Position numbers and translations under genes: made by a program
Notes under the pieces: model-generated
What the model was told of the DNA's origin: nothing
The model's input: only the letters and a program-made list of their open reading frames with translations
The model's database searches: none
Assembly (NCBI GenBank): GCA_977020255.1
Contig: CDROCS010003742.1
Coordinates: 496,001-560,000, forward strand
From: Obrimoposthia wandeli
Lineage: Eukaryota
DNA length: 64,000 bases
Direction: 5' to 3'
In this document: piece by piece, positions 5,949 to 29,565 of the stretch
Layout of the letters: each line of letters opens with the position of its first letter
How positions within the stretch are numbered: position 1 is the stretch's first letter

Positions 5949-6046
5949 AATAAAAATATATTTAAAATAAAGACAAGTATTTCTAACACATATATTCCTT
6001 AAAATCACAAAAGAGAATAAAAATATGTACAACACATATAAAAAGT

Positions 6047-6543
6047 TTATACAACCTCATCCGGGTATAAAAAGTGACCATAGGCGACTGAACGGTTTTT
6101 CTCCACCCACTTGCGCTTATCATCACTACTGCTTAAGGCAATTTTACTTAACCTTACAGAAAAAAGTTGATGATTTAGCGAGCTTATACGTTGTTGTTGT
6201 ACACGCTCGCTAACGCAACTCTCATAGATGGCTAAGTAATTAGAATGTCTAATACTTGTCTGTCGGAGAATTAGAATGTCTAATACTTTAGCTCTCATCT
6301 GAGATTCACCTTCTGAAGTCTCTAAGCTATATGATTTTGGACGTAGAAAAACCCTTGCCTATAGCTAAATAATCCTTTGCTTTCATCTTTAACGTTACCA
6401 ATCGCTGTATTAAGCGTCGTATAAAGCGGATGGGCTTTTGGAAATGTCTAGGTATCCAACAGTCCAACAGCAATCATAGCAGGTAACAGTTATTCTTGAA
6501 CATTGACATTATTACACTTCAAGAAAAAGCTATCAGTGTCACC
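6047..6543 (-). pseudogene. Outer pPolB C-terminal part (GDTDSFFL...SSSDDKRKWVEKNRSVAYGH)
   Basis: The minus strand from 6543 reads GDTDSFFLKCNNVNVQE*LLPAMIAVGLLDT*. It ends in ALSSSDDKRKWVEKNRSVAYGHF, matching the inner PolB end. In-frame stops and a short tandem duplication are present. Confidence 0.9.
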
Positions 6544-7412
6544 AGTAGGTAGAAGGATGGAGTCTAGACCACTTTACCCCCCCCCCCCTAAAGGATGACA
6601 TACCATAAGGATGTCTCGCCACACCATAAGGGTATATGTTGCCTCACCTTCGGTGAGGCAACATATACCCTTATGGTATGGCAAGACACCCTTATGGTAT
6701 GACACCCTTTAGGAGGAGGCGGGAGGCGGGGAGGGGAGGGGTAGCGGGGAGGGGTCAAGTGATCTAGACTCCACCCTTCTTTTGGCTATAATCTATGGTT
6801 GTCCATAGTTTAAAGGGTAAAGTGGCTTAATCTCCACCCTTCTTTTTGTGATCTAGTCTCCACCCTTCTTTTTGTGGTCTAGTCTCCACCCATCTTTTTG
6901 TGGTCTAGTCTCCACCCTTCTTTTAGTGATCTAGTCTCCACCCTTCTTTTTGTGGTCTAGTCTCCACCCTTCTTTTTGTGGTCTAGTCTCCACCCTTATT
7001 TTTGGCTAACCACTAATTCAAAGGATCAAGTGGCTTAGTCTCCACCCTTCTTTTTGTGATCTAGTCCATAATGAAAATTTATGATAAAGTTCACACTTAA
7101 CTATTAAGAATGTATGACGTAATCATACACACACTATTCTATGTGAAATTTATACTAAGTTCACTCTTATTAGTTAAGAATGTATTACGTAATCACACAC
7201 ATACTATTCTATGTGAAAATTTATGATAAAGTTCACTCTTATCAGTTAAGAAATGTGGTTTTTAACACACACATACACTATTTTATGTGAAATTTAAACT
7301 AAAGTTCACTCTTATCAGTTAAGGAATGTATTACGTAATCACACACATACTATTCTATGTGAAAATTTAGATCAAAGTTTTTTTCCCAGGCTTACACATC
7401 TAAAGAATTATG
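6544..7412 (+). repeat. Inner left TIR: 60-bp-arm hairpin, G-tracts, about 26-bp repeats, about 60-bp repeats
   Basis: Reverse complement of about 17757-18564, differing by a few substitutions and by internal repeat copy number. Confidence 0.92.
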
Positions 7413-7493
7413 TTAAAATTTGTATTAAATCAAAATTAAATCAAAAATAAATAAGAAAGAAGTCAGAGAATAATACAAAATTAAACACATTTA

Positions 7494-10400
7494 TTATGTT
7501 ATTTCATAATGTCCATAAGCGCGGCTTCTATTTTTCTCGATCCAATAGCGCTTGTCATCTGATGAGCTGAGAGCAGTCTTTTGTATTATGATTGTGTATA
7601 GTTGATGATTTATTGTTCCAAACTTCTTTTGAGGTATAGTATATGCAATACCGTTTTCATACACGTCTAAATATGTTTGATGTACAACCGTTGAACCCTT
7701 AAGATTTACTCCTTTTGATTTATTATTTTCAAAGTCATCTTCAAACTTAAGTGAATAACATTTACAAAGTAAGAAAATCCATTCTTTATACATTCTTCCT
7801 TCCGATTCATCTTTAAATAAACCTATTTTACTATTAAATTTATTAGAATATAATGGATCATTCACATTATAATTTGACGTATCTAATAATCCATCTGCAA
7901 TCATTTTTGGTAACAACTGTTTTCTTAAATTAACGTTTTTACATTCCAAAAAGAATGAATCGGTATCACCGGCAACTATATTAATTGAACAATTGAATAA
8001 ATTACGATATATTTGCAAATCATGATACTGAAGAGTATACATTCGTAATTTGCTAAGGTCTAGTACAGCTTGACCTATATAATTTGGTCGATCGAGACAA
8101 ATAAAATCTTTTCTTAATAAAACAGCTATTAAATTATCATGAATTTCAATTGTTCGTTGAAACATAGGTTTGCTAGTATATGTGATTAATTTTGTAGAAC
8201 TAGTGCAGATGCGAAGATTCAATCGTTTCTTAACATTTTCAACAGTCTTTCCATACAAACTAACATTTTTAAGTTTATAAAAATCTTTGTCACATTTATT
8301 CGTTGCTTGTGATCTCATTTCTGAATTATATTCTATATATTCTGCGAATATCTTAGCCTGAGAGAATTTTACTGCTCGATGAATAATTGTTACCACTGCT
8401 CCTAAACTAACATACATCTGCAATAGTCTCCAATGAATAACATAATGACTTTTTGGCGAATGTGTCATTAAAAGTTTTTCAACTTTTTTACCAGGTGGAC
8501 ATTTCTTTTCTGGAGCTATAGGAAGATCATCTAAAAAGTCATGAAGGTTTTCTGGTATTACCAAGTCTACTTCCATAAAATAACCATATTCAATATGTTC
8601 CATGTTCACATTTTTTATTTCATGCAATATTTCGTTTAATTTTATATCATCAAGAATCCATTCAAAATCTCCTTTTGGTAAAGGTTGATCAAGAGCCCAT
8701 CCATATAAATTATTAACATCTATAAATAAAAGACTTGTTTCTTCATCAGCGACTACATGATGCTTATTGACAAATGTCATTCCTCCTCGTATACCCGAAG
8801 AAATCATGTTGTACATTTCAGGATCCTGCATCAGTTCAACCTTATGTTTTAACATTTTTAGAGCACTTGCCCAACTCAATCCAGGAATGCTAAAAAAGTT
8901 AAGTGGTTCTAAACCATCTTCACTGAGAGCTTTTCTTCTGAATGTTTGAAATACGTCAGCTAATAAATATACGTCAGTCTTTAAGTAAACTAACATATAA
9001 TCCAACATATTTCTACAATTGGTTATTTTCCAAACATCTTGTGCTTTTTGATATTCAGTGTCTGTGATTTTATCATTCCATTTTACTGGTAAACTTAACT
9101 TATTCTGGAGGACATTTAATGATGTAGCAAAATCATATGGGAATATTCCTTTGCCATCAATAAGTTTAGATGGAAAAACTGATCTTGTTAATGGAATAGT
9201 TGGTAATTTACCAGCTAAATTTTTCAAAGATGATTGTAAAAATTGCAAAGAATCTATAAATCTCAGAGTTATTTGACCTAATCTTACAATCATGGCTTGA
9301 AACTTTTCCGTTGATTGTGGTATAATATTTATATCCCAGTCAGTAAATTTATTCAATGCATGTTTTAAAATATGATGTAAATCATAACCTCTGAGATTAT
9401 GAAACACAATAGGTAAAGTTGGACGAAGTTTTCTTGATAAATTACATTCATTGCATGCAGGACCTAGATATTTACCAGTAAAGTGATCATGATCTTTAAC
9501 ATATTTTTCAGATGATTCGTGACATAAATAACATTCATTGGTATTGCTAAATGTATGAATCTCTGCATTTGTTAAGGGAATCATTACGTTTTTAAGAGCA
9601 TCTAAATACCATGGTAAAACCTTTTCTTTAGCCAAGTTCTCTATTGACTGAAGAAACTTAACTATGCAGTCATCACCAACATTATATTGATACTGGGTTT
9701 CAATTTCATCTGTACTCATAAATAACATGCCAGATGCGACAGGCATATGCTTTTGATGATAACTCTCATCTGGTACTAATACAGATTCAAAATCAGCGTA
9801 AACGACATATTTCGGTGATATAGTTTTTGACCAATCATTGAATTTAACGTACTTATTCTTAGGCATAGTATACATTGTAGTGCTTTCTTGATTATAGTCA
9901 CATAAAACTTTATGCTTTTCTAATGACAAATCGGTTTTGAAACCATGTAAACACTTTTCACACCATTTTCTGCTAATTCTAGTCGTTCCAGTTCGAATAT
10001 TTAATAGCCGGTTAAGACAAGTTATTCCTATATAATGAAACCGTTCCTTGGATTCTAGTAACAATAAATTAACTATAGTTCCTTCCTTTATTTTTGATTT
10101 GTATGCAATATCAATATAAGGATTCTTGATAACATCAGTTTTTGATTCTTTTTCACTTATCTCGTTGAATATGAATACATTTATTATTATACCAGGATTT
10201 TGCCGTTCAAATTTTGATATATTTGATATTTTCATAGGCATGTCTTCGGAATTATATACAAAATCATTTAAAAATCTTTCATATTGGCTTGGTCTATTTT
10301 TATGTGAGTCTATTTCATTATATTTAAGTATTGACAATATTGCATAAATAAAGCAAAGATTATCAGAGTTTTGAATATTGACGACTGCTTTAGATTTTGT

Positions 10401-11135
10401 AAGAGAATTTGATGATTTAATATATGAATGACCTGACAATGCACAAATTTGACTATATTTAGTAACAATAAATGCATATTCAAGTATATTCATCAATTTC
10501 CAACCACTACCTTTTTCTGAATATTCTTCAACTTTATTTTCCATTGTATTTTCCATTTCTGAAATTATAGCATGTGAAAAAATCATTGCTCGATGCGAAG
10601 CATACCATTCTTTAGTTTCTCCATCATTCTTTTCAAACCTCATTCTAATGATGTATTGTATCTTTGCTTTTCCCATTAATTGCACTATTTGCACTAGTTC
10701 GTTTAATAATGAAACTGGAACCTTAAGACTTACAAGATTGAGATGATCTACTTTCATGGATATCATTGAATAACTATTTTCTAATGATGTTTTAGTATGT
10801 ATATTATCATTTATTTTACGTTTTCGTGACGTAATTGTAGGAGCTGAAATTACTATGTTTGATGGTACATTAATTATATCAGTTCTTTTGCTTAAAGCCG
10901 GTACTTTAAATAATTCTTTCTTACTAACATTTTCATATGCTTTTAAATGACTAACATGTCGACTATAAAATAAGTTGTAATCAACATTTTCAGTGCTTAA
11001 ACATTGTGGACATATGAAATAATTTATCTTTTTGTTTGAATAACCATAATATTTTTTCATTATATCATGACATTCTTGAGGATTAAAATGTGTATCCGAA
11101 AAACAAATATTTGAATAAGTTTTACATATACTCAT
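7494..11135 (-). CDS. Protein-primed family B DNA polymerase (pPolB) with N-terminal Cys/His motif and vOTU-like/terminal-protein region
   Basis: Exo I YADFES, motif A DVNNLY, motif B KLKNVSLYGK, motif C AGDTDS, Zn insert CYLC...HDH...CNECN, and VNIQNSDNLCF. The frame is open from 11219. The first ATG (MSICK) is at 11135 and aligns with the outer PolB start. Confidence 0.95.
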   Translation of the reverse strand: MSICKTYSNICFSDTHFNPQECHDIMKKYYGYSNKKINYFICPQCLSTENVDYNLFYSRHVSHLKAYENVSKKELFKVPALSKRTDIINVPSNIVISAPTITSRKRKINDNIHTKTSLENSYSMISMKVDHLNLVSLKVPVSLLNELVQIVQLMGKAKIQYIIRMRFEKNDGETKEWYASHRAMIFSHAIISEMENTMENKVEEYSEKGSGWKLMNILEYAFIVTKYSQICALSGHSYIKSSNSLTKSKAVVNIQNSDNLCFIYAILSILKYNEIDSHKNRPSQYERFLNDFVYNSEDMPMKISNISKFERQNPGIIINVFIFNEISEKESKTDVIKNPYIDIAYKSKIKEGTIVNLLLLESKERFHYIGITCLNRLLNIRTGTTRISRKWCEKCLHGFKTDLSLEKHKVLCDYNQESTTMYTMPKNKYVKFNDWSKTISPKYVVYADFESVLVPDESYHQKHMPVASGMLFMSTDEIETQYQYNVGDDCIVKFLQSIENLAKEKVLPWYLDALKNVMIPLTNAEIHTFSNTNECYLCHESSEKYVKDHDHFTGKYLGPACNECNLSRKLRPTLPIVFHNLRGYDLHHILKHALNKFTDWDINIIPQSTEKFQAMIVRLGQITLRFIDSLQFLQSSLKNLAGKLPTIPLTRSVFPSKLIDGKGIFPYDFATSLNVLQNKLSLPVKWNDKITDTEYQKAQDVWKITNCRNMLDYMLVYLKTDVYLLADVFQTFRRKALSEDGLEPLNFFSIPGLSWASALKMLKHKVELMQDPEMYNMISSGIRGGMTFVNKHHVVADEETSLLFIDVNNLYGWALDQPLPKGDFEWILDDIKLNEILHEIKNVNMEHIEYGYFMEVDLVIPENLHDFLDDLPIAPEKKCPPGKKVEKLLMTHSPKSHYVIHWRLLQMYVSLGAVVTIIHRAVKFSQAKIFAEYIEYNSEMRSQATNKCDKDFYKLKNVSLYGKTVENVKKRLNLRICTSSTKLITYTSKPMFQRTIEIHDNLIAVLLRKDFICLDRPNYIGQAVLDLSKLRMYTLQYHDLQIYRNLFNCSINIVAGDTDSFFLECKNVNLRKQLLPKMIADGLLDTSNYNVNDPLYSNKFNSKIGLFKDESEGRMYKEWIFLLCKCYSLKFEDDFENNKSKGVNLKGSTVVHQTYLDVYENGIAYTIPQKKFGTINHQLYTIIIQKTALSSSDDKRYWIEKNRSRAYGHYEIT

Positions 11136-11241
11136 CTGATGATATGATTGATTTGATTTGACTGATTGGATATTGGTTGATTTGTAGACTGAATAAAAAA
11201 AAAATATATATAAATACAATAATTTAATTATTTTACTTACA

Positions 11242-11790
11242 ATGTTAACAAATATTAATTATAAAAGAATTTGCTTAGATGATGTATCCAAATTAAAATT
11301 TCGAACACTACCAGAACAATACGTTTATAAAGCCAAAGATTATACAATACTTATTTTTAGAAATAAGAAATGCAGGATTATGGGATGTAAGGTACCTATT
11401 AAAAATATTTCTTACCCTTTAAGAATAAATATACTTGGTATTCAATCAATTACGATATGTGAAAATTTAGAACAAAGTATCAATCTATTTATATTATCGA
11501 ATGTATTACGTAATGCATGTTCATTTGACCCTGAGGTTTTCCCAGGCTTAAGATTAAATATTTTCAATCCATTGTGTGTAAATATTTTCACATCTGGAAA
11601 GGTCGTAATTTTAGGTCTTAGAAATTTAGATTTTCAAGATCAAGTTAACGATATCATGACATACATTAAAAAAAATTATATAAATACGAAACAATTTCTA
11701 ATTAATTATGGTGAAACAAAGATTTCGGATATTCAAGAAGATGGAAGAAGTCTCATCTGGACCGATTCATACAGCGACCGAATATTTTGA
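11242..11790 (+). CDS. TATA-binding-protein-like cargo protein
   Basis: IQSITICENLEQSINLFILSNVLRNACSFDPEVFPGLRLNIFNPLCVNIFTSGKVVILG matches TBP repeat 2 (IQNMVGSCDVKFPIRL...[33 protein letters not shown]). YTILIFRNKKCRIMG resembles a degenerate repeat 1. Confidence 0.8.
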   Translation: MLTNINYKRICLDDVSKLKFRTLPEQYVYKAKDYTILIFRNKKCRIMGCKVPIKNISYPLRINILGIQSITICENLEQSINLFILSNVLRNACSFDPEVFPGLRLNIFNPLCVNIFTSGKVVILGLRNLDFQDQVNDIMTYIKKNYINTKQFLINYGETKISDIQEDGRSLIWTDSYSDRIF

Positions 11791-11878
11791 TGTTTAATAA
11801 ATATTTAATAAAATGTTGTTATTGTTATAAACATGTACTTATTCTGATATATTTATTCTATATTAATATTTATATATA

Positions 11879-12526
11879 ATGTTATTAACAAACAATTCAA
11901 CTTTTCAAGTAGTAGGACCAAGTGGTAGTGGAAAAACTTTATTTGTTTGTAAATTATTAAATTCAAAAATGTTTAAAAATAAATTTAATAAAATATATTG
12001 GCATCAAGGTGGTGATGGAGAAGCTGGTTTAACAAACCAAGAATTTAATAAAATAAAAAACATTAAGATTATTAACGGTTTTGATGAAAATTGGACGACA
12101 AGACTTGTAAAAGGTGATGTAATTGTTATTGATGACTTATATCAAGAGGCTAACAAAGAATCTGATTTTAATGATTTATTTACAAAAATTGCAAGACATA
12201 GAGAAGTTACTGTAATTTTTATAACCCAAAATTTATTTCATCAAGGAGGAAATCATCGCACTCGTAATCTTAATGTACATTATTTGATTTTATTCAAAAA
12301 TCCTAGAGATCAAACAGTGATAGATTTTATTGCTCGTCAAGCATTTCCTCATAACAAGAGTTATTTAATTGATGCGTTTCATGATGCTACATCTTTACCA
12401 CATGGTTATTTATTTTTAAATTTTACTCAATCATGTCCTGATGATTTAAGAATTGTTACTGATATATTTAATCGTAATGGTATTACAGTCTATAAACAAA
12501 TAAATAATAATAAAGTTTTAAAATAA
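11879..12526 (+). CDS. A32/FtsK-like genome-packaging ATPase
   Basis: Walker A GPSGSGKT, Walker B IVIDD, RHREVTVIFITQNLF, FKNPRD. Confidence 0.95.
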   Translation: MLLTNNSTFQVVGPSGSGKTLFVCKLLNSKMFKNKFNKIYWHQGGDGEAGLTNQEFNKIKNIKIINGFDENWTTRLVKGDVIVIDDLYQEANKESDFNDLFTKIARHREVTVIFITQNLFHQGGNHRTRNLNVHYLILFKNPRDQTVIDFIARQAFPHNKSYLIDAFHDATSLPHGYLFLNFTQSCPDDLRIVTDIFNRNGITVYKQINNNKVLK

Positions 12527-12527
12527 A

Positions 12528-12944
12528 ATGAATTTTAAAAAGAGTATTCTTAAACATAGTAAAAGGACAGATAAAGATGAAGTTAAAAAATTAATAAATA
12601 CTGTATTATATGATCGTAATAATAATATTGAATTTTCAAAAAGTTTACCTTATTTTAAAACCTTAATTGACGTACCAAAAACGAATAAAATGAAAATGTT
12701 GAAATCATTTCCAATTTATGTAGTTGATGATTTAATAAAAATTTTAAATAAAATAATTCATGGTAAAATTAAACCTGATGATAATATTTTAAAATATAAA
12801 AATTCATTAATAAATTTAGCAAATTCACGTGGTAAAATTAATAAAAGAAACATTATTTATAATCAAAATGGTGGATTCATATTGGCTCTACTGCCCGCTA
12901 TAGCATCAGTAATAGCTAGTGTTATATCTTCAAGATGGGGATAG
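12528..12944 (+). CDS. Basic putative core/structural precursor protein
   Basis: Lys-rich and ends QNGGFILALLPAIASVIAS, a Q-x-G-G motif followed by a hydrophobic helix. A homolog occupies the same slot in the outer element. Confidence 0.7.
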   Translation: MNFKKSILKHSKRTDKDEVKKLINTVLYDRNNNIEFSKSLPYFKTLIDVPKTNKMKMLKSFPIYVVDDLIKILNKIIHGKIKPDDNILKYKNSLINLANSRGKINKRNIIYNQNGGFILALLPAIASVIASVISSRWG

Positions 12945-13027
12945 TTGTCTTAATAACGAAAATAATTACATTCATTCGTTTTATACAAACATATAAACAG
13001 ATTAAAATATATTTAACTTTTATAATA

Positions 13028-13201
13028 ATGGGGATAAACAATACAAAGTTGTCTAACTTATTTATAAATTTTAATTCTTCATGCTGCAATGGAAAAGATT
13101 TGGAACAATCCAGAAGATCCAGACGGTTATACAGGGTTAGAAAAATTGACAAAAAGAGTCAAACAATCAAAAACAAACACACAAAAATGGTTAAGAAATG
13201 A
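13028..13201 (+). CDS. Small MG...SSCC protein overlapping the integrase 5' end
   Basis: MGINNTKLSNLFINFNSSCCNG. The same MG...SSCC-x-G layout occurs at the same position in the outer element. Confidence 0.55.
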   Translation: MGINNTKLSNLFINFNSSCCNGKDLEQSRRSRRLYRVRKIDKKSQTIKNKHTKMVKK

Positions 13202-14114
13202 ATTATCATATAGTCTGAATAAACCTTTAAGACGTAAATTCCCTACTAGATCATATAAAACTAATGGTATTAATTCGTTATGGCAGATGGATTTAATGGA
13301 AATGATTCCTTATTCTTCAGTAAATAATGGATTCAAGTATATTTTAACTTGTATTGTTGTATTTAGTCGTTTTGCAAGGGCAGTTGGTGTTAAATCAAAA
13401 TCAGGTATTGATTTATTACATGCAATAGAATCTTTAATTGTTGATGATGTACCAGTAAATATCCAAACCGATGAAGGTAAAGAATTTTTTAATTCACATG
13501 TTAAGAAATTATTTAAAACTGAAAATATCAATCATTATTCAGTATATTCTCAATATAAAGCTGCAGTAGTTGAAAGATTTAATAGAACGTTAAGAGAACG
13601 GTTAAAGAAATATTTTACTAAACAAGGTAATAAGAAATGGGTGAATGTATTACCAAAAATTATTTATGCTTATAATAATTCTAAACATAGAGGTTTAGAT
13701 GGTTTAAAACCTGTAGATGTAAATAATAAAAATGAATTTGATATTTTGTTGAAACAAAATCTAAAAGAAAAGAAAGTTAAATCTAAATATAAAATTGATG
13801 ATTATGTTCGAATATCAAAAATAAGTACAAGTCCATTTATTAAAAATTTTAATCAAAATTGGAGTGATGAGGTTTTTCAAATTCATGATATTAATTATAA
13901 ACAAAATCCAATAATGTATATTTTAAAAGATATTGATAACGTCATCATCAAAGGAAAATTTTATAAACAAGAGTTACAATTAATTGATAAACCTAAACTA
14001 TATCGAATACAAGAAATTTTAGAAACTAAAGGTCGTGGTAAGAATAAACAATATTACGTAAAGTGGCACGGATACTCTGAACCTTCTTGGATATTTGCTT
14101 CTCAAATTGAATAA
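13089..14114 (+). CDS. Retroviral-type (rve) integrase with C-terminal chromodomain
   Basis: WQMDL, IQTDEGKEF, KAAVVERFNRTL (DDE); QYYVKWHGYSEPSWI chromo-like tail. Confidence 0.96.
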   Translation: MEKIWNNPEDPDGYTGLEKLTKRVKQSKTNTQKWLRNELSYSLNKPLRRKFPTRSYKTNGINSLWQMDLMEMIPYSSVNNGFKYILTCIVVFSRFARAVGVKSKSGIDLLHAIESLIVDDVPVNIQTDEGKEFFNSHVKKLFKTENINHYSVYSQYKAAVVERFNRTLRERLKKYFTKQGNKKWVNVLPKIIYAYNNSKHRGLDGLKPVDVNNKNEFDILLKQNLKEKKVKSKYKIDDYVRISKISTSPFIKNFNQNWSDEVFQIHDINYKQNPIMYILKDIDNVIIKGKFYKQELQLIDKPKLYRIQEILETKGRGKNKQYYVKWHGYSEPSWIFASQIE

Positions 14115-15156
14115 TGTCAAAATATATTATTTTACCTAGTAATAGTTGTCCAAGTACTCAACCTAACAATACAGCCAATCAATTTACTGTAGATTGGGAA
14201 AACTCTCTAAATTTAGATGGTGAATGGGAGGTTGCCTTGACTGAATTTGTATTTAATTTTACTCCTTTAACAATACAAACTACAAAATTTAAAACTACAA
14301 AAAAAACTGTAATTCAAAAATACTTTATAAAACGGAAAAGATAGAAATGAAAACTTTCGATGTATCTTTTGCAATTTTAAATGGATTAATTTTTAATAAT
14401 TTAAATACTGTTTTCAATTTCAAAATTACAAAGGGTCAAAAATTAGAAATAAGTACAATTAACAGTATTCATCGAATGTTGTTAAAATTTGAAACTTTAG
14501 AAGAATCAAAAATTATAGGTTTTAATGAAATACAAAAAATTTCTAGTCATGTTATAACAAGTGATGAAATTGTTGACATAAATAAAAATATTCATGCTAA
14601 AATGAGAATTACAATTTATTCTTTAGCTGAATATGAATACGAAATAAAATTTAATCAAAATTATTTGATACAAGATAGTACTTCATTATGTAATATTATA
14701 GCCAGTAAATGTAATGAAATTTTTAAAAGCTGTAATATAGATTCAGACGGATTATTTGATATTTTATTAAAGAAAAATGTAAAATCAGTTTTATTTGACG
14801 AAAAACTTGCATCTTTATTAGGTTTTAATAATGTTTTCTTTGAGAAACGAATTAAAGGTTTTCAAAAACCAACACTTTCTAGCTCATATAATCAAATGTA
14901 TATTTATACTAGTTTAACAGATTCTGTCTTAGTAGGATCTGATTATGTTCCACTGTTAAAGTCTATTTGGTTAAAATCATTAAAATATCGATATGGAGAT
15001 GTAGTAAATGTTAAAATTGATAATCCAATGTACTTGAAAATGAGAGATTCAAGTATTAATAGAATCGAGGTAAATATACGTGATGATTCTGGTAATTTAA
15101 TTCCATTTTCATATGGAGCAAAAACTAGTTTAACTCTTCATTTACGTAAAGTATAA
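14114..15156 (+). CDS. Minor capsid protein (penton), split over two frames near 14290-14345
   Basis: The N-terminus YIILPSNSCPSTQPNNTANQFTVDWENSLNLDGEWEVALTEF and the C-terminus YIYTSLTDSVLVGSDYVPLLK...NPMYLKM...IEVNIRDDSGNLIPFSYGAKTSLTLHLR are typical Polinton penton ends. Confidence 0.85.
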
Positions 15157-15197
15157 ACAATATAAATATATTTAAAATATAAATATATATATATAAA

Positions 15198-15602
15198 ATG
15201 AATACATCAATTATAAAATTTTATAGCAAAAGTCAACAGGGCGGTGAACTTCCCTATTTCATTGGTAAACAATATGGATCTGGTTGGTATCAAACTATTT
15301 CTAGATTAGCTATTCCATTGTTAAAAAAAGTTGGTTTATCAGCAGCTACAAGTGCTGCCAATGTAATTGGTGAAACGGTAGGAACTGCGTTAACAAATCC
15401 AAAAAACATAATTTCATCTCTCAAAGAAAATACAATCAAAGAAGTCAAAACTTTGATTCCAAAATTAAAAAATAATGCTGTTGATAGTTTAAATAAAGTC
15501 GCAAATTGTATTGAACAAAATGGAAAGGGTCTTAAACGTAAAAGAAATAATTTAAATAGTATAAACAAACGTCTTAAAGGTACTATTTTCCAAAATGACT
15601 AG
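15198..15602 (+). CDS. Conserved Polinton small structural precursor (QQGG...QYGSG then amphipathic helix)
   Basis: FYSKSQQGGELPYFIGKQYGSGWYQTISRLAIPLLKKVG, lying between penton and MCP. Confidence 0.7.
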   Translation: MNTSIIKFYSKSQQGGELPYFIGKQYGSGWYQTISRLAIPLLKKVGLSAATSAANVIGETVGTALTNPKNIISSLKENTIKEVKTLIPKLKNNAVDSLNKVANCIEQNGKGLKRKRNNLNSINKRLKGTIFQND

Positions 15603-16815
15603 TATAAAATCTGAATTGTGTATTTTCGATAGACCACTACCTCAAGTAGTGATTGAAAATTCAAGTTTTGAAGAAATATTTCCAATCAATTCAATTACTG
15701 GAAAAAATTTAAATGACATAGAATTTAATATTCATGCATCTGAAGAAGATTATCTGGATTTGAATGATACTTTGTTAAATATTAAATTAAAAGTTGTAAA
15801 TGAAGATGGTACTGATTTAATGAAAGATAGCGATGTAACTCCAGAGAATTACATGTTTCAAACTTTGTTTAGAGATGTTATTCTAACACTTAATAATGTA
15901 AAGGTTGAAGGAGGAAATGGAACGTATACTCATAAGGCTATATTCGATACTCTTTTGAATTTTAGTAGTGATACCAAGTATACTAACCTTGAATGTAGTG
16001 GGTATGATGATGAAACAGAAAATCGTAAACAATGGATTAGTGAATCTAAAATATTTTCATTATGTAATTCAATTAGATTAGATTTCTTTGAACAACCAAA
16101 ATATTTGATTCCAGGGATTAATGTTCATTTGAGATTTATGAGAAATCAGCATAATTTTTCGCTCTATTCAGAAACTTCAAAACCAATTATTCAAATTCTA
16201 GATGCTAGATTGTATGTTAGAAGAGTAAAAGTTGATTCTTCAGTAATGATTGGACATCAGTTAGGTTTGCAAAGTCAGAATGCAGTTTACCCAATTAGAA
16301 AAACTCAGTTAGTAACATATTCAATTCCTCAGGGTTCTTTGGAACTTAATAAAGATCAAATATTCGGAGACTATCGTTTACCCAAGTTCATTTTGATTGC
16401 TTTCAAAGATACACCTCAGGGTGGTAAGGAATACAAAGTTAAATCTTCTACGTTCGATACATTTAATGTTTCAACAATATCATTAGCTAGAAATACAGAT
16501 TATCGAGAAACTTATAATCTAGATAATAATAATTTTTCATTAGCATATATGCAGTCAATTATTCGAAATATGAATATTTTAGATAAAAACGTGAATAATG
16601 GTATCAGATTTTCTGATTTTAAATCAGGAAGTTCGATTTTCACTTTTCTATTAGCACCAGATTTTGATATAAACACTACTCAAGTGCCTAAAACTGGTAA
16701 TTTAAGACTTGAAATTAGATTTAATTCTCCTTTGACCGTACCAACAAGTGTTTTGATTTACGGAATATTTGATTCCGAAATTCAGATTACGAAAAATAAA
16801 ACTGTGATTGTATGA
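15595..16815 (+). CDS. Double jelly-roll major capsid protein
   Basis: KSELCIFDRPLPQ, YLDLNDTLL, DFFEQPKYLIPG, LYVRRVKV, LPKFILIAF, GNLRLEIRF; 406 aa. Confidence 0.92.
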   Translation: MTSIKSELCIFDRPLPQVVIENSSFEEIFPINSITGKNLNDIEFNIHASEEDYLDLNDTLLNIKLKVVNEDGTDLMKDSDVTPENYMFQTLFRDVILTLNNVKVEGGNGTYTHKAIFDTLLNFSSDTKYTNLECSGYDDETENRKQWISESKIFSLCNSIRLDFFEQPKYLIPGINVHLRFMRNQHNFSLYSETSKPIIQILDARLYVRRVKVDSSVMIGHQLGLQSQNAVYPIRKTQLVTYSIPQGSLELNKDQIFGDYRLPKFILIAFKDTPQGGKEYKVKSSTFDTFNVSTISLARNTDYRETYNLDNNNFSLAYMQSIIRNMNILDKNVNNGIRFSDFKSGSSIFTFLLAPDFDINTTQVPKTGNLRLEIRFNSPLTVPTSVLIYGIFDSEIQITKNKTVIV

Positions 16816-17188
16816 AGTAAGCTTATTGTATATTATATTCTTTATTAAAATTAGTACTTTAGAAATTCATAAATCCGGAAAAATATTATTGAATAACAAA
16901 TTTAATGGAGTATATTCATTGGATAAAATTCCATCATTAAAACCCGGAGGTTACATTATCAATACTCATACTTCAAATCTACCAGGCGAGCATTGGATAG
17001 CAATATTCGTTGACAGATTCGAGATTCGAGTGTTTGATTCTTTTGGATTCTATTATCCTGCAAAGTTGGTATCTACACTTGAAAAAGAAAACATTCCAGT
17101 CTACTATAATCGAGTTAAATGTCAGAATCCGTTAACTAAAAACTGCGGACCTCTGAGTCTTTTATGGTTGAAACTTCAACACAAATAA
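16812..17188 (+). CDS. Adenain/Ulp1-like maturation cysteine protease; inferred exons 16812-16816 and 16855-17188
   Basis: GEHW, FDSFG, CQN and NCG catalytic residues. There is no in-frame ATG in the main ORF. ATGAA|GTAAGC...TTAG|T gives MNTLEIHKSG in frame. Confidence 0.9.
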
Positions 17189-17242
17189 TTTTAAGTATAA
17201 ACAAATATATCATTTTAGTATTTCATTTTATTTTATTTTCAA

Positions 17243-17695
17243 ATGGCTTTTATTGATTTAGAATGTTTTATTGATAATAATGGAGAATATATTCCAAAGG
17301 AATTATGTATAATGTATGTGATAGATATGACTTGTCCATTTCATTACGTGTTTAAAAATCAAATACCATGGAGTAGTTTATCATTTACAGTTAAAAGAAA
17401 AAATCTATATTTGATAAATCATCATCATCAGTTATCCTGGTTTGAAGGTGAAAGCTCTGATATTCATATTGATGATGTTGAAACAATATTCTATGTTATG
17501 GATTCTATTGATGGAAAGAAAATTAATTTAGTGAAACGAATGTTTCCAAATTTGAGAATTGTGAATTATAATAAAAGTTTCAAAAATTTAAAGAAAATAC
17601 CAAAAAATATTCGATGTCCGTTTAGAAAACACGGAAAACATTGTGCTTATTTGAAATGTTTTTCTCTATGTATTGATTATGTAAATTGTATATAA
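17243..17695 (+). CDS. DEDD/DnaQ-like (RNase H fold) protein with C-terminal CP-x3-H-x2-HC motif
   Basis: FIDLECF...KEL Exo-I-like start and CPFRKHGKHCAYLKC. Homolog in the outer element. The fold assignment is inference. Confidence 0.55.
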   Translation: MAFIDLECFIDNNGEYIPKELCIMYVIDMTCPFHYVFKNQIPWSSLSFTVKRKNLYLINHHHQLSWFEGESSDIHIDDVETIFYVMDSIDGKKINLVKRMFPNLRIVNYNKSFKNLKKIPKNIRCPFRKHGKHCAYLKCFSLCIDYVNCI

Positions 17696-17756
17696 ATATA
17701 TTTATTAAGGATATTTTATTTTAATATATAATTTATGTTATTTAAATAAATTTTAC

Positions 17757-18564
17757 CATAATTCTATAAATGTGAAAGCCTAGGAAAAACTTTAGTTTAA
17801 ATTTCACATAAAATAGTGTATGCGTGTGTTAAAAAAAAAAACGCATTTCTTAATTGATAAGAGTGAACTTTATCATAAATTTCACATAAAATAGTGTATG
17901 TGTGTGTTAAAAACCACATTTCTTAATTGTTAAGAGTGAACTTTATCATAAATTTTCATTATGGACTAGATCACAAAAAGAAGGGTGGAGACTAAGCCAC
18001 TTGATCCTTTGAATTAGTGGTTAGCCAAAAATAAGGGTGGAGACTAGACCACAAAAAAGAAGGGTGGAGACTAGACCACAAAAAGAAGGGTGGAGACTAG
18101 ATCACTAAAAGAAGGGTGGAGACTAGACCACTTGATCCTTTGAATTAGTGGTTAGCCAAAAATAAGGGTGGAGACTAGACCACAAAAAGAAGGGTGGAGA
18201 CTAGATCACTAAAAGAAGGGTGGAGACTAGACCACAAAAAGATGGGTGGAGACTAGACCACAAAAAGAAGGGTGGAGACTAAGCCACTTTACCCTTTAAA
18301 CTATGGACAACCATAGATTATAGCCAAAAGAAGGGTGGAGTCTAGATCACTTGACCCCTCCCCACTACCCCTCCCCTCCCCGCCTCCCGCCTCCTCCTAA
18401 AGGGTGTCATACCATAAGGGTGTCTTGCCATACCATAAGGGTATATGTTGGGTCACCGAAGGTGAGGCAACATATACCCTTATGGTGTGGCGAGACATCC
18501 TTATGGTATGTCATCCTTTAGGGGGGGGGGGTAAAGTGGTCTAGACTCCATCCTTCCACCTACT
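17757..18564 (-). repeat. Inner right TIR
   Basis: Inverted copy of 6544-7412, with an extra copy of the ccacttgatcctttgaattagtgg block and fewer 60-bp units. Confidence 0.92.
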
Positions 18565-19320
18565 GTCACCCGCTATAATTCTAATGTCGCAGTTAAATTG
18601 AACTCGATATTTCTCCAACTGCTCATATTGTAGCTCATACATACGAAGTTTGCTTAAATCTAATACTGCCTGGCCCATGTAACTAGGACGATCCAAAACA
18701 ATATTTTCCTTATCCAGTAGAACTGCATTAAGGTCCGTATCGATTTCGATTGTCCTACGAAAGTGGGCTTTACTGCAATAGGTAACCAGCTTCTGTGGAG
18801 TATTACAAATCCGGAGGTTAATTCTTTTCATCAGATTCTCAATGAGTTTTCCAAATAAAGAATTCACCTTCAGTTTGTAGTAATCCCGCTCGAAATCTGT
18901 TATAGCCGCAGCTCTTTTGAGAGAATTATCCTCAATATATTTTGAAAAAACATTAGTTTGTTCAAACTGTATTGCTCTGTATACAAAATCTACCTTAGCA
19001 CCAAGTCTAACGTACATTTGTAGCAATCTAGAATGCACAACATAATGTTTCTTAGGGTAATGCGTTAATAACAATTTTTCAGTCTTACACCCTGGTGGAC
19101 GCTGTTTAATGGGAGCAAGGGGAAGATCGTCGAATTTATTATGAAGCTCAAAGGGAATGGATAAATCTATTTCCAATAAATGAGCGAAGCGACTACAGGA
19201 TAAATCTACTGATTTTAAGCTGGAGATAATATTCCCCAACTCTAACCGATCAGTCACCCAGGAAAAGTTACCACAAGGTAAAAACTGGGACATAGCCCAC
19301 CCGTACAAATTGTTTACATC
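18565..19320 (-). pseudogene. Outer pPolB middle part, motif A to motif C (DVNNLYGW...IRIIAGD)
   Basis: Open 252-codon stretch homologous to inner PolB, bounded exactly by the two insertions. Confidence 0.95.
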
Positions 19321-20403
19321 AGTAGGTGGATGTGTCCGGTCTAATCCACACCCCTCCCCCTCCCCCCTTGTCCTTGTATGTGTGTGGAGTGAAATTTCGT
19401 GTATGTGTGTGGAGTGAAATTTCACTCCACACACATGCACGGTTTTAAAGGACAAGGGGGGTGTTGTGTGGTGTGGTGTGGTGTGGTGTGGTGTGGTGTG
19501 GTGTGGTGTGGTGTGGAGAATAGAGCCCGCCCCGTAGGGGCGGGTGGTTGTCGGTGGGTGTTTCCATCCAACACCTATCGACTTTCACCCTTCACCCGAG
19601 GTTGTCAGTGATATACACGAGAGCGAGACATTCGTACATCGCCAAGCTAGTCTGTGACATATATGAGAGCGAGACATCCGTACATCGCAGAGCTAGTCTG
19701 TGACATTTATGAGAGCGAGACATCCGTACATCGCCAAGCTAGTCTGTGACATTTATGAGAGCGAGACATCCGTACATCGCCAAGCTAGTCTGTGACATAT
19801 ATGAGAGCGAGACATCCGTACATCGCCAAGCTAGTCTGTGACATATATGAGAGCGAGAAATCCGTACATCGCAGAGCTAGTCTGTGACATATATGAGAGC
19901 GAGACATCCATACATCGCCAAGCTAGTCTGTGACATATATGACAGCGAGACATCCGTACATCGCAGAGCTAGTCTGTGACATATATGAGAGCGAGACATC
20001 CGTACATCACCAAGCTAGTCTGTGACATATATGAGAGCGAGACAATCGTACATCGCAGAGCTAGTCTGTGACATATATGAGAGCGAGACATCCGTACATC
20101 GCAGAGCTAGTCTGTACCTATATGAGAGCGAGACATCCGTACATCGCCAAGCTAGTCTGTGACATATATGAGAGCGAGACATCCGTACATCGCCAAGCTA
20201 GTCTGTGACATATATGAGAGCGAGACATCCGTACATCGCCAAGCTAGTCTGTGACCTATATCAGTCCCGAGCCTTTCGCGCCGATAGGCGCAAAAAATGT
20301 TTAGGGTGGGGACCCCCCCCCTTTTCCTTTAAAACCGTGCATGTGTGTGGAGTGAAATTTCACTCCACACACCTACACGAAATTTCACTCCACACACATA
20401 CAA
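19321..20403. mobile_element. Non-coding mini-Polinton-like element with truncated right end
   Basis: Starts AGTAGGTGGATGTGT. 19374-19451 is inverted at 20326-20403, and the counterpart of the terminal 53 bp is missing. The interior is (GTGTG)n plus a 46-bp array, with no credible ORF. Confidence 0.8.
19615..20260. repeat. 14 x 46-bp tandem array
   Basis: Unit gagagcgagacatccgtacatcgc(ca/ag)agctagtctgtgacatatat, starting at 19619, 19665, 19711 and so on; no spacers. Confidence 0.95.
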
Positions 20404-20493
20404 TCAATAGTAACAAGAACTACATTTATTCTTATACATGTATATATATATATATATGTGTTAGTGTCTAAAATTAGAAAAAATTAGTAAAAT

Positions 20494-22988
20494 ACAATCC
20501 AGGGATGCAGAAGAAATTGAGTGGCTCCAATCCATCGTCAGCAATGGCCTTGGTCCGGAATGCTGTAAACACGTCTGCTAGAAGGTAGACGTCCATCTTC
20601 ATATAGACCAGCATATAGTCCCAGATCGATGAGCAGCCGCTCTGAGTCCAGACCATCTTCGCCATTTCATATTGTGCTGGCTTGATCTTCTCATCCCACT
20701 TTGGCGGTAAGCTGGTGATTGCACGAAGAGCACTATCTGATACTGCCATATCGTATGGGAAGATTCCCTTGGCGCTCACCAGATGTTGCGGGAAGACCGA
20801 ATGTGTAAGAGGAGTCACACCCAGGTTTTCCACAAGTTTTTCAAGTCCGCTGTTCAAAAATTGAAGGGAATCGATGAAACGTATACAGACTCCTCCAATA
20901 TACACCATCATAGCCTGGCATTTCTCTGTTGATTGAGGTATAACAGATACATTCCAGTCAGGAAACTTGCACAGTGCGTGCTTCAATATGTGGTGCATGT
21001 CATAACCCATAAGATTGTGAAAAATGACGGGAAAAGATCGATTAATTCTCCTTGATAAGTTGCATTTTGCATGTGCAGCTCCCAGGTATTCGCCAGTCAT
21101 GTGATCGTGATCTCGAACTTTCTTTGTAAGTTTCTTCTTACACAGGTAACAGATTCTTGCTGCATTGAAACTCGATACCTGTTCCTGTGTGAGTTGTCGC
21201 ATCACCTCGATCGCATGCTTTTTGTACCATGGGAGTACAACCTATTTCGCCAAGTCCTCTAATTTCTGCAAAAAGGATACCACACAAGATTCCCCAGTAA
21301 AGACCGAGTAATCATGTGTGTACCCTCTCGTGGCTGCAACGGGAGACATGAGCATACCAGCCGAGATTGGAAGCTGAATCTGATGGTGGATTCCATGCGG
21401 CGGCGGCACAGCCTCAAAGTCCGCGTAAACAGCAAAAGGCGGAGAAATTGTTTTCGAAAAGTCCTTAAACTCTATATGCTTCTCTGTAGGCATTGAATAA
21501 AGTGTTGTATGATCTAAATTCATCCTACAGAGTGGAACGTGTTTGGCGTAACTTATTGGTCTCCGGAAGCCATGAAGACACTTATGGCACCAAGTACACT
21601 GGATGCGATTAGATACACCTCTGTTCCTATAATTAAGCAGCCTATTGAGTTTAGGAATACCGACATAATGAAAATTATCATTATTTTCTAAAAGGAGAAG
21701 ATTGATTGGTTTAGCGTCTGGGTTTGTGGTTCCGTAAATGACATCCACATAGGGATTTTTGAAGATATCCCCATCCGTTTGCACATTAGAGAACCTATTG
21801 AATGTAAATACGTTGATTGAGAGAGATAGATTCTTTCTCTCAAATCGCGCTATATTACATAGACGCATCGGCATCTCATTCTCATCAAAAACTAATTGAC
21901 TCAAAAGGGCATCATATTACTTAACCCGCTGAGGATTAGTGCGAAATACGTTGCGGAAAAGTATAGATAAGATACTATAAAGAAAGCAAAAAGTGATTGA
22001 GTTCTGCACATTGATAACGCAATGTGAGAGTGCTAACTCAGATGGAGTAGGTATATAACTACTCCCCTGGAGATAGTTCATTGTTGTTGTTTTAGTGACT
22101 AAAACAACAACAAACGAAATCTCCAGGAAGCGGTTCACTACCCAATTACTGCTACTTTGAGAATAATTCTCAATCTTCTTGTTGATCCCATCTACTCCCG
22201 CATCTATAAACCCCTCATCTATGGGGAGCCCTCTATTGGAAAAATTCCAAGCGCGTGTTTCTCCAATATTGGAAAATTCAACACGCACCCCGAATTGAAC
22301 CTTGCAAGTTGCAAACTTGCTGACTGTGTCCCTTAAGCTAGTCAAAAGTGATACAGGAACTTGTAAATCGATGAGATTGTCATTAGAAACATCTAATGAC
22401 AATGTCTCAATCGTGCCCCGAAGACTAGTCTTACGCTTAACAGCATTAACCCTGGACAACTTCGCAACAGAGCTACCTGAAGTGGGCATAACACCTCTCT
22501 TGCGGGTAGATGCTGGTAACGGCGCGGGGATCATACCAACTGGAGGAGGCATAACCATTGTAATTGGTGCAGCAGATGGTGGTGAAGCAATTGGGGCAGC
22601 AATTGGAACAGCAGCAGCAACTGGGGCAGATACTGGAACAGCAATTGGCAAAGCAATTGGCAAAGCAATTGGCAAAGCAACAACTGGACCAGCAACCCGA
22701 TCTTGAGAAATAGTAGCAGATCTATTCTAAAAGATGGCCTTCTTGCCACGTTGCTGGAAATGGCGAAGATGGACATGATGACGCGCCACAAACTCCGGCC
22801 AATCAATCTCCTCCGCGGAGAGACATACTGGACATACGTAGAATTGTTGTCCGTTGAACTTCTGTCCAAAGTAGCTCTTTATTTTTCCGTCACATTCCTT
22901 GTGACTCTCCTAGAAGCATAAATGTTTGTTCATATTGCAATTCTAGAAAGAAAAATAATGAATATAGAAATAACAAGAAACTTACCAT
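20494..22988 (-). pseudogene. Outer pPolB N-terminal part with ATG-only first exon
   Basis: ATG(22988)|43-nt GTAAGT...TTCTAG|NCNMNKHLCF*ESH...YVCPVCL. It continues through VINVQNSITFCF, YADFEA, CYLC...HDH and LNFFCIPGL with stops and frameshifts near 21917, 21904, 21242 and 21205. Confidence 0.9.
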
Positions 22989-23119
22989 TTTCAATTTCGT
23001 TTATAATAGGGGATTATTTGTTGATTGATGCTTGCTTATATACTATTTTCGAGCTAGTATTAAGCCAATCAGATTCATTCATTATTTAAACCAACCAGAT
23101 TAATTTAAAACAGAATAGT

Positions 23120-23629
23120 TTACTGACAGATGTGAGTAGTTGAATTTTCATTAATATTTAAATAATCCAAACTAGCTGCAAAGCATTTCTTGTATGCACA
23201 ATGCTCTCCATGTTTAATATATGGACAATTGATATTTGATGGATTTAATTGTTTTAATGTTTTCGAGTAATTTATCACTCTAAATTCAGGAAAATATTTA
23301 TTGATTGTCTTTATTTTAGCTCCATTATTTTCATCTAAAACATAGAAAATTGATTTGGATACATCACAACAACGTTTTATTTCCTCAGTTATTTCTTGTA
23401 TCTTGAAATAACTATTACCATCAACTAGTTTTAGTCGATGGTAATGCTTAATGAGATATCTATTTATTTTTCTTGATTTTCTATTCATCATGTCCTATAT
23501 GGGTTGCATTTTAAAAACATAAAGTTTAGGATAGAAGATTGCATCCACATCCATTATACATAGTTCTTTTATTACAAATTCAGTATTATTATCAATAAAA
23601 GCTTCAAAATCAATAAAATAAACAGACAT
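23120..23629 (-). pseudogene. Outer DEDD-like protein homolog
   Basis: MSVYFIDFEAFIDNNTEFVIKELC...QPI*DM...CPYIKHGEHCAYKKC; one premature TAG. Confidence 0.75.
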
Positions 23630-23667
23630 TTTTTTATAGCAGTAATTTTATTTGATATTGTTTATAT

Positions 23668-24045
23668 CTATTGTTTATGCTTTAACCAAAGCAGACAGAG
23701 TTGTCCACATGACTGTGTTAAAACATTTTGATAATGTTTCTTACTAAAATGTACTTTCTTTCCAGAGTCAAGTACTGTAGATACTAATTTAGAAGGGTAA
23801 TATATCCCAAAGGGGTCAAAAACAAAGTTTTCATTTTCTTTAACATGTATTGCAATCCAATGTTCACCACGCAAATTAGATGAATGTGTATTGATTACAT
23901 ATCCACCTAGTCGAGTCAAAGAGGGAATGTGATCAAGGCTGTAGACTCCATTGAAACGCGAACCGAGTAGTTTTCTTCCGCTTTTTGTTATCTCGTCCGA
24001 ACTAGAATATATATTAATTAATAAATTCAAAATGACTTACTTCAT
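23668..24045 (-). CDS. Outer maturation protease; inferred exons 24045-24041 and 24001-23668
   Basis: ATGAA|GTAAGT...TTCTAG|T gives MNSDEITKSG. GEHW, FDPFG, YQN and SCG are intact. Confidence 0.88.
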
Positions 24046-24076
24046 TTATATATCTTCTTTATTGTTTTCATTCTGT

Positions 24077-25828
24077 TTATACTATCACTGTTCCTCCCTT
24101 GGTAATTTGAACCTCAGAATCGAATACTCCATAGATTATAATATTAGTAGGGTGTTCAAGTGCTTTTGAAAACTTGATTTCTACTTTCAAATTTCCCTGT
24201 TTAGGGATTTGAGCTTGATTAATATCGAAATCAGGAGAGAGAACAAATGTGAACAGTGTATACTTGTCCTTGAAATCAGTCATTGAAATTCCAATATTAG
24301 CATCCTTATCCAAATGACCAAGATTTCTAATTAAAGATTGCACATAAGAAAACACATAATCATCGTTTTCAAAGTCATTCGTATAAGATTCTTGATAATC
24401 AATATTTCGTGCAAGTTTAATTGAACTCACATTCATGTGTCCAAATTGAGAAACCTCATTTTTAGACTCACCTCCATAGGTAGAAGTGTTTTGGAAAGCA
24501 ATTAAAACAAAGTTTGGAAGTTGCATATCACCAAAAATCTGATCCTTGTAATAAAATAGTGCCCCCGTAGGGATAGCGTGAGAAACAATATTAGTTTTTC
24601 TAATAGGATAACATGCATTTTGCTTCTCCTACCCTATTCGATGTGCAACGAGTACAGATGGTTCCACCTTTACTCGTCGAACCAGCAGTTTTGCTTCCGT
24701 AATCTCAATTGCGGTTTTAATAGTATCGTCGCAAACAACATTAAAACCTACTGGATTTCTCTTCATTCGAAAATGTGCACTTACACCGGGTAAAAGATAC
24801 TTTGGTTGCTGAAAAGCTAATATCCAACTAGGTTCAGTATATCCATGCCACTTAACATGATATTGTTTATGCTTTCCTCTACCTTTTGTCTCTAAAATTT
24901 CTTGGATTCTATATACATTTGGTTTCTCAGGCAAGACTTGTAATTCCTCATGATAAAATTTACCCGTGATTACATTATTGGTTTCATCCTCAATGAAATA
25001 CATTACCGGCATACGTTTATTATCAATTTTAGTTATACGAAATACTTCATCGCTCCAATTCTCTTTGAAATTCTTTATAAAAGGAGTAGTACTAATTTGA
25101 GAAATACGTACATAATCAGCAACTTTATACTTAGGTTTCCGCGCAACTTGACTTTGGTTACGGCGTTGCCAAATTTCCATAGCATTCTCATCTGTAACAT
25201 CAACAGGTCTTTTCCGGTCTAATGATGAGTGTTCACTATGATTGTATGCATGTATTATTTGAGGTAAATCAGTAACCCAGGACTTATTTCCCTGCTTTGT
25301 GAAATACTTTTTCAATCGATCTCTCAATGTTCGATTAAAACGTTCAACTAGGGCGGCTTTATATTGGGAAAATACTGAGTAATGATTAATATTATGTTTT
25401 TTCAATAGTGTTCCAACATGTTTATTATAAATCTCCTTTCCACTATCCGTTTGGAAATTTCTTGGTTTTATTTCTTTAATCAAAAGCTTCATTGCGGCTA
25501 AAACATCGGTACCAGACTTAGACTTTAATGGAATAGCTCGCACAAATCTGCTAAAGACATCAACACAAGTTAAAATATATCGATATCCGTTGTTAATACT
25601 AGCATACGGAATCATTTCCATCAAATCTGCTTGCCATAAATCATTCGGGCCGCTCGTTTTGTATGATCTCGTTGGGAACCGACGTCTCATTGGTTTGTTT
25701 AAACTGTAAGCTAATTGATTTCTCAACCACGCCTGAGTTTCCTTTTCCCCCTTCTTTGTTTCTATTACTAATTTTGAAACTCTCGTGTAACCAACGAGAT
25801 GACTTGGATCGAACCATATTTTCTCCCT
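24077..25828 (-). pseudogene. Outer integrase fused in frame to the C-terminal 60 percent of MCP by an internal deletion
   Basis: VKWHGYTEPSWILA|FQQPKYLLPG...VRRVKV...RIG*EKQNACYPIRK...LPNFVLIAF in one frame. The integrase start reads AGG at 25828 where the inner element has ATG. Confidence 0.9.
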
Positions 25829-25886
25829 TACAACAAGACGATTTGATTTTTATATTGAATTTAGGAATAGATAGAAGTGATCCCAT
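25641..25886 (-). CDS. Outer MG...SSCC small protein
   Basis: MGSLLSIPKFNIKIKSSCCKG, overlapping the integrase start as in the inner element. Confidence 0.5.
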   Translation of the reverse strand: MGSLLSIPKFNIKIKSSCCKGENMVRSKSSRWLHESFKISNRNKEGGKGNSGVVEKSISLQFKQTNETSVPNEIIQNERPE

Positions 25887-25925
25887 ATATAAATTCATAT
25901 TTTTGATTCGAATTTATGTTTATAA

Positions 25926-26318
25926 TCATCTTTTTATTAGTCTACTAGCAAGTGCACCAACTATTGAGCTAATAATTGGTACGAGAACTCTTAAAAATCC
26001 ACCATTTGGCTTATAAAGCAACCTACGTTTACCGATTCATGTTTTGCATGAAACAAAGCAAGTAGAGGTTTCTTATGTCGATTCATGTTAGCCTTGACAA
26101 TTATTTTACCAGAAACTATTTTCTATAGTAGAGAATGATTTAAGAATAACTGGGCGGCGAATAGCAGGTGCACGCATGAGAGAATTGAAATAGGCAATAC
26201 TCCTAGATTTCTTAACAGCAGTTCTTTTCGATTTTTGAGCAACCATTTTCCTTGCACTTAAAACTGATTTAATCAATTTTTTAACTTCAGGTTTAACAGT
26301 TTCCTTTTTAAAATTCAT
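25926..26318 (-). pseudogene. Outer basic core-protein homolog
   Basis: MNFKKETVKPEVKKLIK start and PNGGFLRVLVPIISSIVGALASRLIKR end, joined across two frameshifts. Confidence 0.7.
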
Positions 26319-26959: not shown

Positions 26960-27002
26960 ATTAAAAATATTAGATTATCGGGATAATGTTTATAAGACAA
27001 AA

Positions 27003-28276: not shown

Positions 28277-28302
28277 TTTATCAATTCCGAGTCAATTTAC
28301 TC

Positions 28303-29493: not shown

Positions 29494-29565
29494 TAAATTT
29501 TTGTGTCTTTATTTGTATTATTTTATTTTATATATATAAACAATAGTGATACTTTAATATTTATT

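Follow-up and report, generated by a model that had tools for sequence, protein, structure and literature searches.

Polintons (Mavericks) are the closest described systems, and introns have little place in accounts of them. Intact vertebrate Mavericks are given without introns, with reference to Kapitonov and Jurka 2006, in the available text of PMC8097293; in Caenorhabditis Polintons, the core genes are intronless and introns occur in host-derived cargo (available text of 10.1101/2022.07.12.499685); endogenous viruses are taken as intronless in the accessible part of PMC10120064; and Polinton introns are not considered in the accessible part of 10.1101/2025.04.19.649669. As far as the available portions go, Polinton core genes are assumed to lack introns, and prokaryotic gene finders are the routine means of calling them (PMC8097293, PMC10120064, 10.1101/2025.04.19.649669). 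The original prediction had stated that Polinton genes are generally described as intronless, and the core-gene descriptions in the same partial texts agree (PMC8097293, 10.1101/2022.07.12.499685, PMC10120064).

No conserved spliceosomal intron in the protease gene of a Polinton was found described in the literature, where Kapitonov and Jurka 2006, Pritham 2007, Repbase, and supplements could hold such a description; the available portions of PMC8502044, 10.1101/2023.08.22.554363, PMC5803895, 10.64898/2026.07.28.741278, PMC11296320, 10.1101/2024.03.25.586562, and PMC6451197 contain nothing on Polinton introns. Intronless core genes are a common description of the group and not a defining criterion, and the Polintons analyzed here do not conform to it. 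The intron predicted in their protease gene is contrary to the usual description of Polintons, and the regulation proposed for it is unproven.

Two nested Polintons and their protease genes

The window (the whole stretch of 64,000 nucleotides that was analyzed) contains two Polintons, the inner one inserted in the polymerase gene of the outer one (Table 1). Both have terminal inverted repeats, AG ends, a 6-bp target-site duplication, and an integrase above the Pfam cut-off (PF00665). The DNA polymerase domain PF03175 is above cut-off in pieces of the outer element; the 1254-aa frame of the inner element has no PF03175 match and was assigned as a polymerase by its evident similarity to the outer pieces. 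An A32-like packaging ATPase is recognized in the inner element (PF04665, E = 6.7e-6), and its outer homologue is 75% alike in DNA. The outer copy is decayed, with an interrupted polymerase and a deletion that fused the integrase and capsid genes.

Table 1 Features of the window discussed in the text
Feature	Position	Strand	Remark
Outer Polinton	5362..30894	.	AGTAG ends, terminal inverted repeats, 6-bp target duplication
Inner Polinton	6544..18564	.	AGTAG ends, terminal inverted repeats, 6-bp target duplication
Inner putative major capsid protein gene, 406 aa	15595..16815	+	Named by position and size, no Pfam match
Inner protease exon 1, coding part (ATG and two bases of codon 2)	16812..16816	+	Overlaps capsid stop
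Inner predicted spliceosomal intron, 38 nt, phase 2, GT-AG (GTAAGC..TTAG)	16817..16854	+	
Inner protease exon 2, adenain-type cysteine protease, no Met	16855..17188	+	
Second predicted start-proximal intron, 43 nt, phase 0	22943..22985	-	Directly after ATG 22988-22986 of outer DNA polymerase
Outer protease exon 2, no Met	23668..24001	-	Peptidase_C5 E = 9e-4, below curated cut-off
Outer predicted spliceosomal intron, 39 nt, phase 2, GT-AG (GTAAGT..CTAG)	24002..24040	-	
Outer protease exon 1, coding part (ATGAA)	24041..24045	-	
TATAAAC, TATA-like motif across outer capsid stop	24075..24081	-	About 35 nt before protease ATG
Host lunapark predicted intron, 42 nt	61441..61482	+	Size comparison

Other features of the two elements were also recorded. 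The outer Polinton carries a dual-specificity phosphatase gene (27461-28291, minus strand; PF00782, E = 1e-12), and an endonuclease VII-like (HNH) stretch, PF02945, lies within both polymerases (7494-11258 and 20474-21241, both on the minus strand). GC content is 41-47% in the outer polymerase gene (18541-22900 of the window) vs. about 23-34% elsewhere in both elements, and this gene is co-oriented with the capsid module, whereas the inner element's polymerase is not; on GC and orientation, it is possibly a swapped polymerase. An insertion of about 1 kb with 88-nt inverted ends in the outer polymerase gene (19374-20403) is missing from other copies.

The best solved match to the inner protease by profile is adenain (E = 1.9e-6; structures 1avp and 4ekf), and comparison of its structural model (pLDDT 92) with known folds also returned adenain (E = 1e-5). 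The His/Asp/Gln/Cys motifs of clan CE, with the His invariant and the Asp and Gln nearly so, are those of an adenain-type enzyme. The first helix of the model starts where exon 2 starts.

Predicted removal of either intron joins the ATG in frame to a 110-codon exon 2 devoid of Met; unspliced, both window proteases read Met-Lys-stop. The original prediction had placed the two introns, in phase 2 and with the frame restored, correctly to the base. It had also held that no other in-frame ATG precedes the catalytic His in these two proteases, as the Met-free exon 2 bears out, and that the two interiors are dissimilar, which agrees with an alignment no better than shuffles (score of -4 vs. 1.0 for shuffles, z = -1.6). 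The inner protease ATG does overlap the capsid stop, the TGA at 16813-16815 lying inside ATGA, and the outer protease ATG is clear of the capsid stop by a 31-nt gap. In the window copy, the frame is open across the inner intron segment from a TTG at 16808.

Conservation of the intron among copies in the genome

We searched the 1.35-Gb assembly with the inner and outer proteases and took the best 150 scored matches to each (99-100% identity) of about 26,700 first-look candidates. Three further queries added four protease families, which brings the genome to at least six, with protease identities of 48-76% between the six. The Polinton load is very large, at about 20,000-27,000 first-look candidates per search of the assembly.

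We examined 161 loci, which are best-scoring matches and not a random sample, and 160 of them were assigned to the six families. The ATG..GT..AG pattern is in frame in 149 of these 160: the inner family keeps the intron in 30/30 loci (one of them with 37 nt), the outer family in 49/54, and the other four families in 10/10, 26/30, 27/28, and 7/8. Of the 11 failures, eight appear to be individual decayed copies, and the remaining three have a rearranged 5′ end in common. Intron length varies within families (37/38, 41/42, and 42/43 nt), and variants common to several copies fall in the intron interior, some shifting the length by one base. For 100 of the 150 best inner-family matches, the open frame measures 112 codons, a stop preceding exon 2 by two codons; in the five such loci that were read, the closing stop sits within the intron.

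An exact intron-loss copy was not found in the assembly with a degenerate motif for the intronless start, a motif built for the window's two families that would miss others (2 places vs. 1 in the control). On visual inspection, one of these two places resembles the capsid gene; no protease motif is present in the other (L236).

Relatives in metagenomes and constant features of the intron

A metagenome scan returned 41 loci, 21 closest and 20 more distant. Among the 21 closest, 14 have an intron at the same position and form eight lineages, which may stem from few samples; four are intronless (L175, L177, L183, and L185), and three are cut off by contig ends. An in-frame Met was seen by eye in 19 of the 20 more distant loci, the remaining one being cut off. 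A survey of protease 5′ ends in related Polintons had been proposed as a check on the original prediction, and it recovered the GT-AG pair in 149/160 loci of the genome and in the eight metagenomic lineages. IMG/VR gave 16 pattern matches, none confirmed as a relative.

Over the 14 lineages with the intron, typical lengths are 37-47 nt with all three frames represented, and the frame changes with length within families as well, so that the intron segment is not coding. Protease identity is 42-76% among the tested lineages, and capsid identity 45-76%. Residue 2 after predicted splicing would be Asn in 13 lineages and Asp in one; Asn or Asp holds this position in 45 of the 84 homologues whose start is full-length. 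The acceptor invariably precedes a conserved aromatic residue by 15 codons, and this fixed position gives a Met spacing of 17 codons, the same as in the intronless L175 and L177 and in P0004.

GT and AG were required by the test; the independent evidence lies in a donor tail common to the lineages, a position that does not vary, and interiors without relation to one another. Donor positions +3 to +6 are common to 75-100% of 12 lineages, and the interiors are barely above shuffles. From shuffles of the 70 nt upstream, the chance that an ATG-NN-GT would stand 30-60 nt ahead of an AG at precisely this place is 0.0009-0.004 per lineage, values that are not to be multiplied since the lineages share ancestry. 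Donors are mostly close to the consensus, the acceptor is AAG in one family, and a branch-point-like word, loosely defined and counted without a control, occurs in 7 of 12 AT-rich introns. The GTRAG-like donor, the GT-AG ends conserved over a drifting interior, and the frame restored whatever the length are features of U2-type introns. In 10 of the 14 lineages, the stretch up to the catalytic His contains no further in-frame ATG; the other four have one, within the intron in L169, at residue 9 in L174, and at residues 26-29 in L238 and L178.

Judged from protein sequence, the N-termini of database proteins P0006-P0009, P0163, P0165, and P0166 look like read-through of the same intron. P0154 and P0001 belong to one 90% cluster, one having the full Met-Asn start and the other starting at an internal Met, which could reflect a spliced vs. 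a genomic sequence or only a different start call. In the intronless-protease relatives L183 and L185, a GTAAGT...TAG stretch lies directly 3′ of the protease stop (after about 2767 and about 1483, respectively); these stretches are possibly introns of a small downstream gene.

History of the intron

In a capsid-plus-protease tree of 22 rows (two later-found families not included, bootstrap not fully settled), the 12 intron lineages and the intronless L175 form a clade with 100/100 support, and the two nearest rows outside it, L183 and L185, are intronless. Two changes are required on this tree, consistent with a single gain and a single loss; a topology that groups all intron lineages is not rejected (p-AU = 0.081), so that L175 may also be an early branch. 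The protease-only tree is poorly resolved. The intron is dispensable, as L175, inside the clade, and L177 lack it. The original prediction had called the intron ancestral, which is upheld by its clade-wide position, conserved splice sites, and unconserved interior, and we infer a single gain in the ancestor of this Polinton clade.

A promoter-like motif before gene starts

We took 55 gene starts, from both Polintons of the window and from 13 metagenomic loci, and 28 of them have ATAAAC 10-60 nt ahead (shuffles: mean 2.6, maximum 9), the 55 starts being non-independent because the genes are homologous. Relative to the next ATG, the motif is concentrated at 30-47 nt upstream, and its distances from the previous stop are scattered. 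TATAAAC-type sites in the window are at 11826, 12491, 15152, 15560, and 17196 on the plus strand and at 24081, 23666, and 23005 on the minus strand, with others in loci L165-L185. A poly(A) signal was considered and rejected: the motif tracks the next ATG and often lies within the previous gene by 30-45 nt, and AATAAA shows no enrichment (8 vs. 8.3). Its presence before most gene starts, often inside the previous gene, suggests one promoter per gene. The inner Polinton encodes a TBP-like protein (11197-11790, plus strand; PF00352, E = 2.5e-11), with a similar gene in L183, and this protein could be the reader of the TATA-like motif.

ATAAAC is found 31-37 nt before the protease ATG in 11 of the 14 lineages, often within the last capsid codons, pointing to a gene-specific protease promoter in these 11. 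It is missing there in three lineages, all of them families of this genome and the inner family among them. Two of the six families of this genome have the ATGA stop/start overlap, and both are without the motif. The original prediction had offered a timing switch on a polycistronic or read-through transcript. As a general account the polycistronic part fails, since the motif before the protease ATG in 11/14 lineages fits a promoter; for the inner family, with no motif and an overlap with the capsid stop, it is possible, and coupling of the protease to the capsid message is likewise possible in both ATGA-overlap families, the inner element included.

A second predicted start-proximal intron

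The predicted intron after the ATG of the outer polymerase (Table 1) is present in 24 outer-family loci, with lengths of 39-58 nt; a donor or acceptor is missing in 3 of the 26 loci that show the polymerase N-terminal motif. The polymerase case is weaker than that of the protease because the outer polymerase has an in-frame ATG four codons later and the inner polymerase has no start-proximal intron.

Host introns and sequence data

The host gene lunapark also has predicted introns of 45 and about 30 nt, and among 15 host CCT gene junctions one intron is 41 nt, one junction is not resolved, and the rest are about 63-590 nt. The Polinton introns had been said to match host short introns in size, which is correct insofar as a short class exists (42 nt in lunapark and 41 nt in CCT), but other sizes are common, most CCT introns being about 63-590 nt. 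Four sequencing runs cover genes, spacers, and terminal repeats alike and so look like DNA; neither intron is among the 15 joints listed from these runs (of which there are 1025 more), and this has no bearing on splicing either way. About 20 full-length intronless GroEL-like matches were obtained, some in contigs >1 Mb (contigs of L128-L151), and are probably bacterial sequence in the assembly.

Discussion

Taking together the DNA pattern, its conservation, the frame logic, and the motif, all of which are direct observations, we regard the intron as almost certainly real. The reading that we favor, and consider fairly probable, is that of a real, old, obligatory, cap-proximal U2-type intron that is unregulated and hard to lose. 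A promoter about 31-37 nt before the ATG in most lineages would have host RNA polymerase II start a few bases before the ATG; TATA elements stand at a usual distance from the transcript start, and with this spacing exon 1 would be about 10 nt. The host spliceosome would remove 37-47 AT-rich bases and complete codon 2 as Asn or Asp, a step that would be obligatory and probably constitutive. Unspliced RNA would read Met-Lys/Glu-stop because the phase-2 GT(A/G)A donor itself supplies the stop. Protease synthesis most likely requires host splicing; the original prediction had made capsid maturation dependent on it, and for protease synthesis the Met-free exon 2 and the unspliced Met-Lys-stop indicate that it should be. 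The intron would persist mainly because the protease is needed, so that its splice sites cannot decay, and would rarely be lost because copying is DNA to DNA and loss needs a rare exact deletion. Polintons are not known to have a reverse-transcription step. Retention needs no special function.

A regulatory role for the real intron seems unlikely to us. Slow or regulated splicing would set the dose or timing of the protease, with stop/start re-initiation on the capsid message in the ATGA families; unspliced RNA would be a clean off state, both ATGA-overlap families are without the promoter-like motif, a second start-proximal intron is found at the polymerase start of the outer family, and adenovirus produces its homologue of this protease from a late transcript through a choice among alternative 3′ splice sites (PMC7851563, in its available portion). 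However, any phase-2 GT(A/G)A donor brings the stop with it, most donors come close to the consensus, the interiors have no common sequence to serve as a regulatory site, 11 of the 14 lineages have an apparent promoter of their own, and intronless relatives exist within the clade. A more general form, in which the ATG is placed on a micro-exon in enzymes to be kept scarce or late (the protease, and the polymerase in one family), is speculative and in our judgment improbable. Were such gating true, the host splicing state (germ line, stress) would decide particle maturation, and promoterless families would couple the protease to the capsid message by stop/start overlap.

We are more doubtful that the real intron is kept as an expression aid, by which a cap-proximal intron would raise expression, export, or stability, or would shield the message from host surveillance of intronless RNA. 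Intron-mediated enhancement and the silencing of intronless mobile-element RNA are known phenomena, and a position few bases from the inferred transcript start would agree with such a role, but the other core genes of the inner element, including the abundant capsid gene, are continuous frames with no such intron.

It is very improbable that there is no cis-splicing and that GT and AG are incidental, with a non-AUG start (the inner window copy being open from the TTG through the segment), a downstream Met (some lineages having a later one), or an AUG from a trans-spliced leader, because a stop closes the inner frame in 100 of the 150 best matches of that family and length changes close it in other families, 10/14 lineages lack another in-frame ATG before the catalytic His, and the chance per lineage is at most 0.004. 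A trans-spliced leader ending in AUG at this acceptor was rejected, as it would be out of frame and close within 1-23 codons in all 14 lineages.

The favored reading, an old and obligatory intron, has practical consequences. Prokaryotic-type gene callers mis-start the protease, several database proteins beginning at an internal Met or within the apparent intron. A conserved spliceosomal intron in a virion-maturation gene would imply that, over its history, the clade has relied on transcription in the nucleus and on splicing by the host. Furthermore, a junction read cannot derive from genomic DNA and would therefore be a handle on whether integrated Polintons express virion genes, an advantage in a genome where near-identical copies number in the hundreds or more.

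Comparison with known systems

The elements share with animal Polintons/Mavericks the protein-primed DNA polymerase, retroviral-like integrase, packaging ATPase, adenovirus-like protease, inverted repeats at the termini, and a target duplication of 6 bp (PMC8097293; 10.1101/2022.07.12.499685); in the available text of these sources, introns are only in host-derived cargo, whereas in the present clade a core virion gene has a clade-wide intron. Dinoflagellate introners resemble our case in being intron-forming sequences inside integrated Maverick/Polinton-like proviruses, but they are mobile repeats mostly inserted after integration (PMC11957031, accessible part), whereas the present intron holds one position in deeply diverged lineages and has unrelated interiors. 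In cryptophyte Polinton-like viruses, group I introns also adjoin the capsid gene, but these are self-splicing, 309-376 bp long, and in a small upstream gene, and not spliceosomal (PMC12220804, accessible part). The polymerase and terminal protein of adenovirus take their ATG from a small upstream exon. Human adenovirus 2 has in L3-23K a homologous protease whose message needs host splicing, which according to the available text of PMC7851563 is a matter of 3′ splice-site choice in a long late unit, whereas in the present Polintons an intron of 37-47 nt cuts codon 2.
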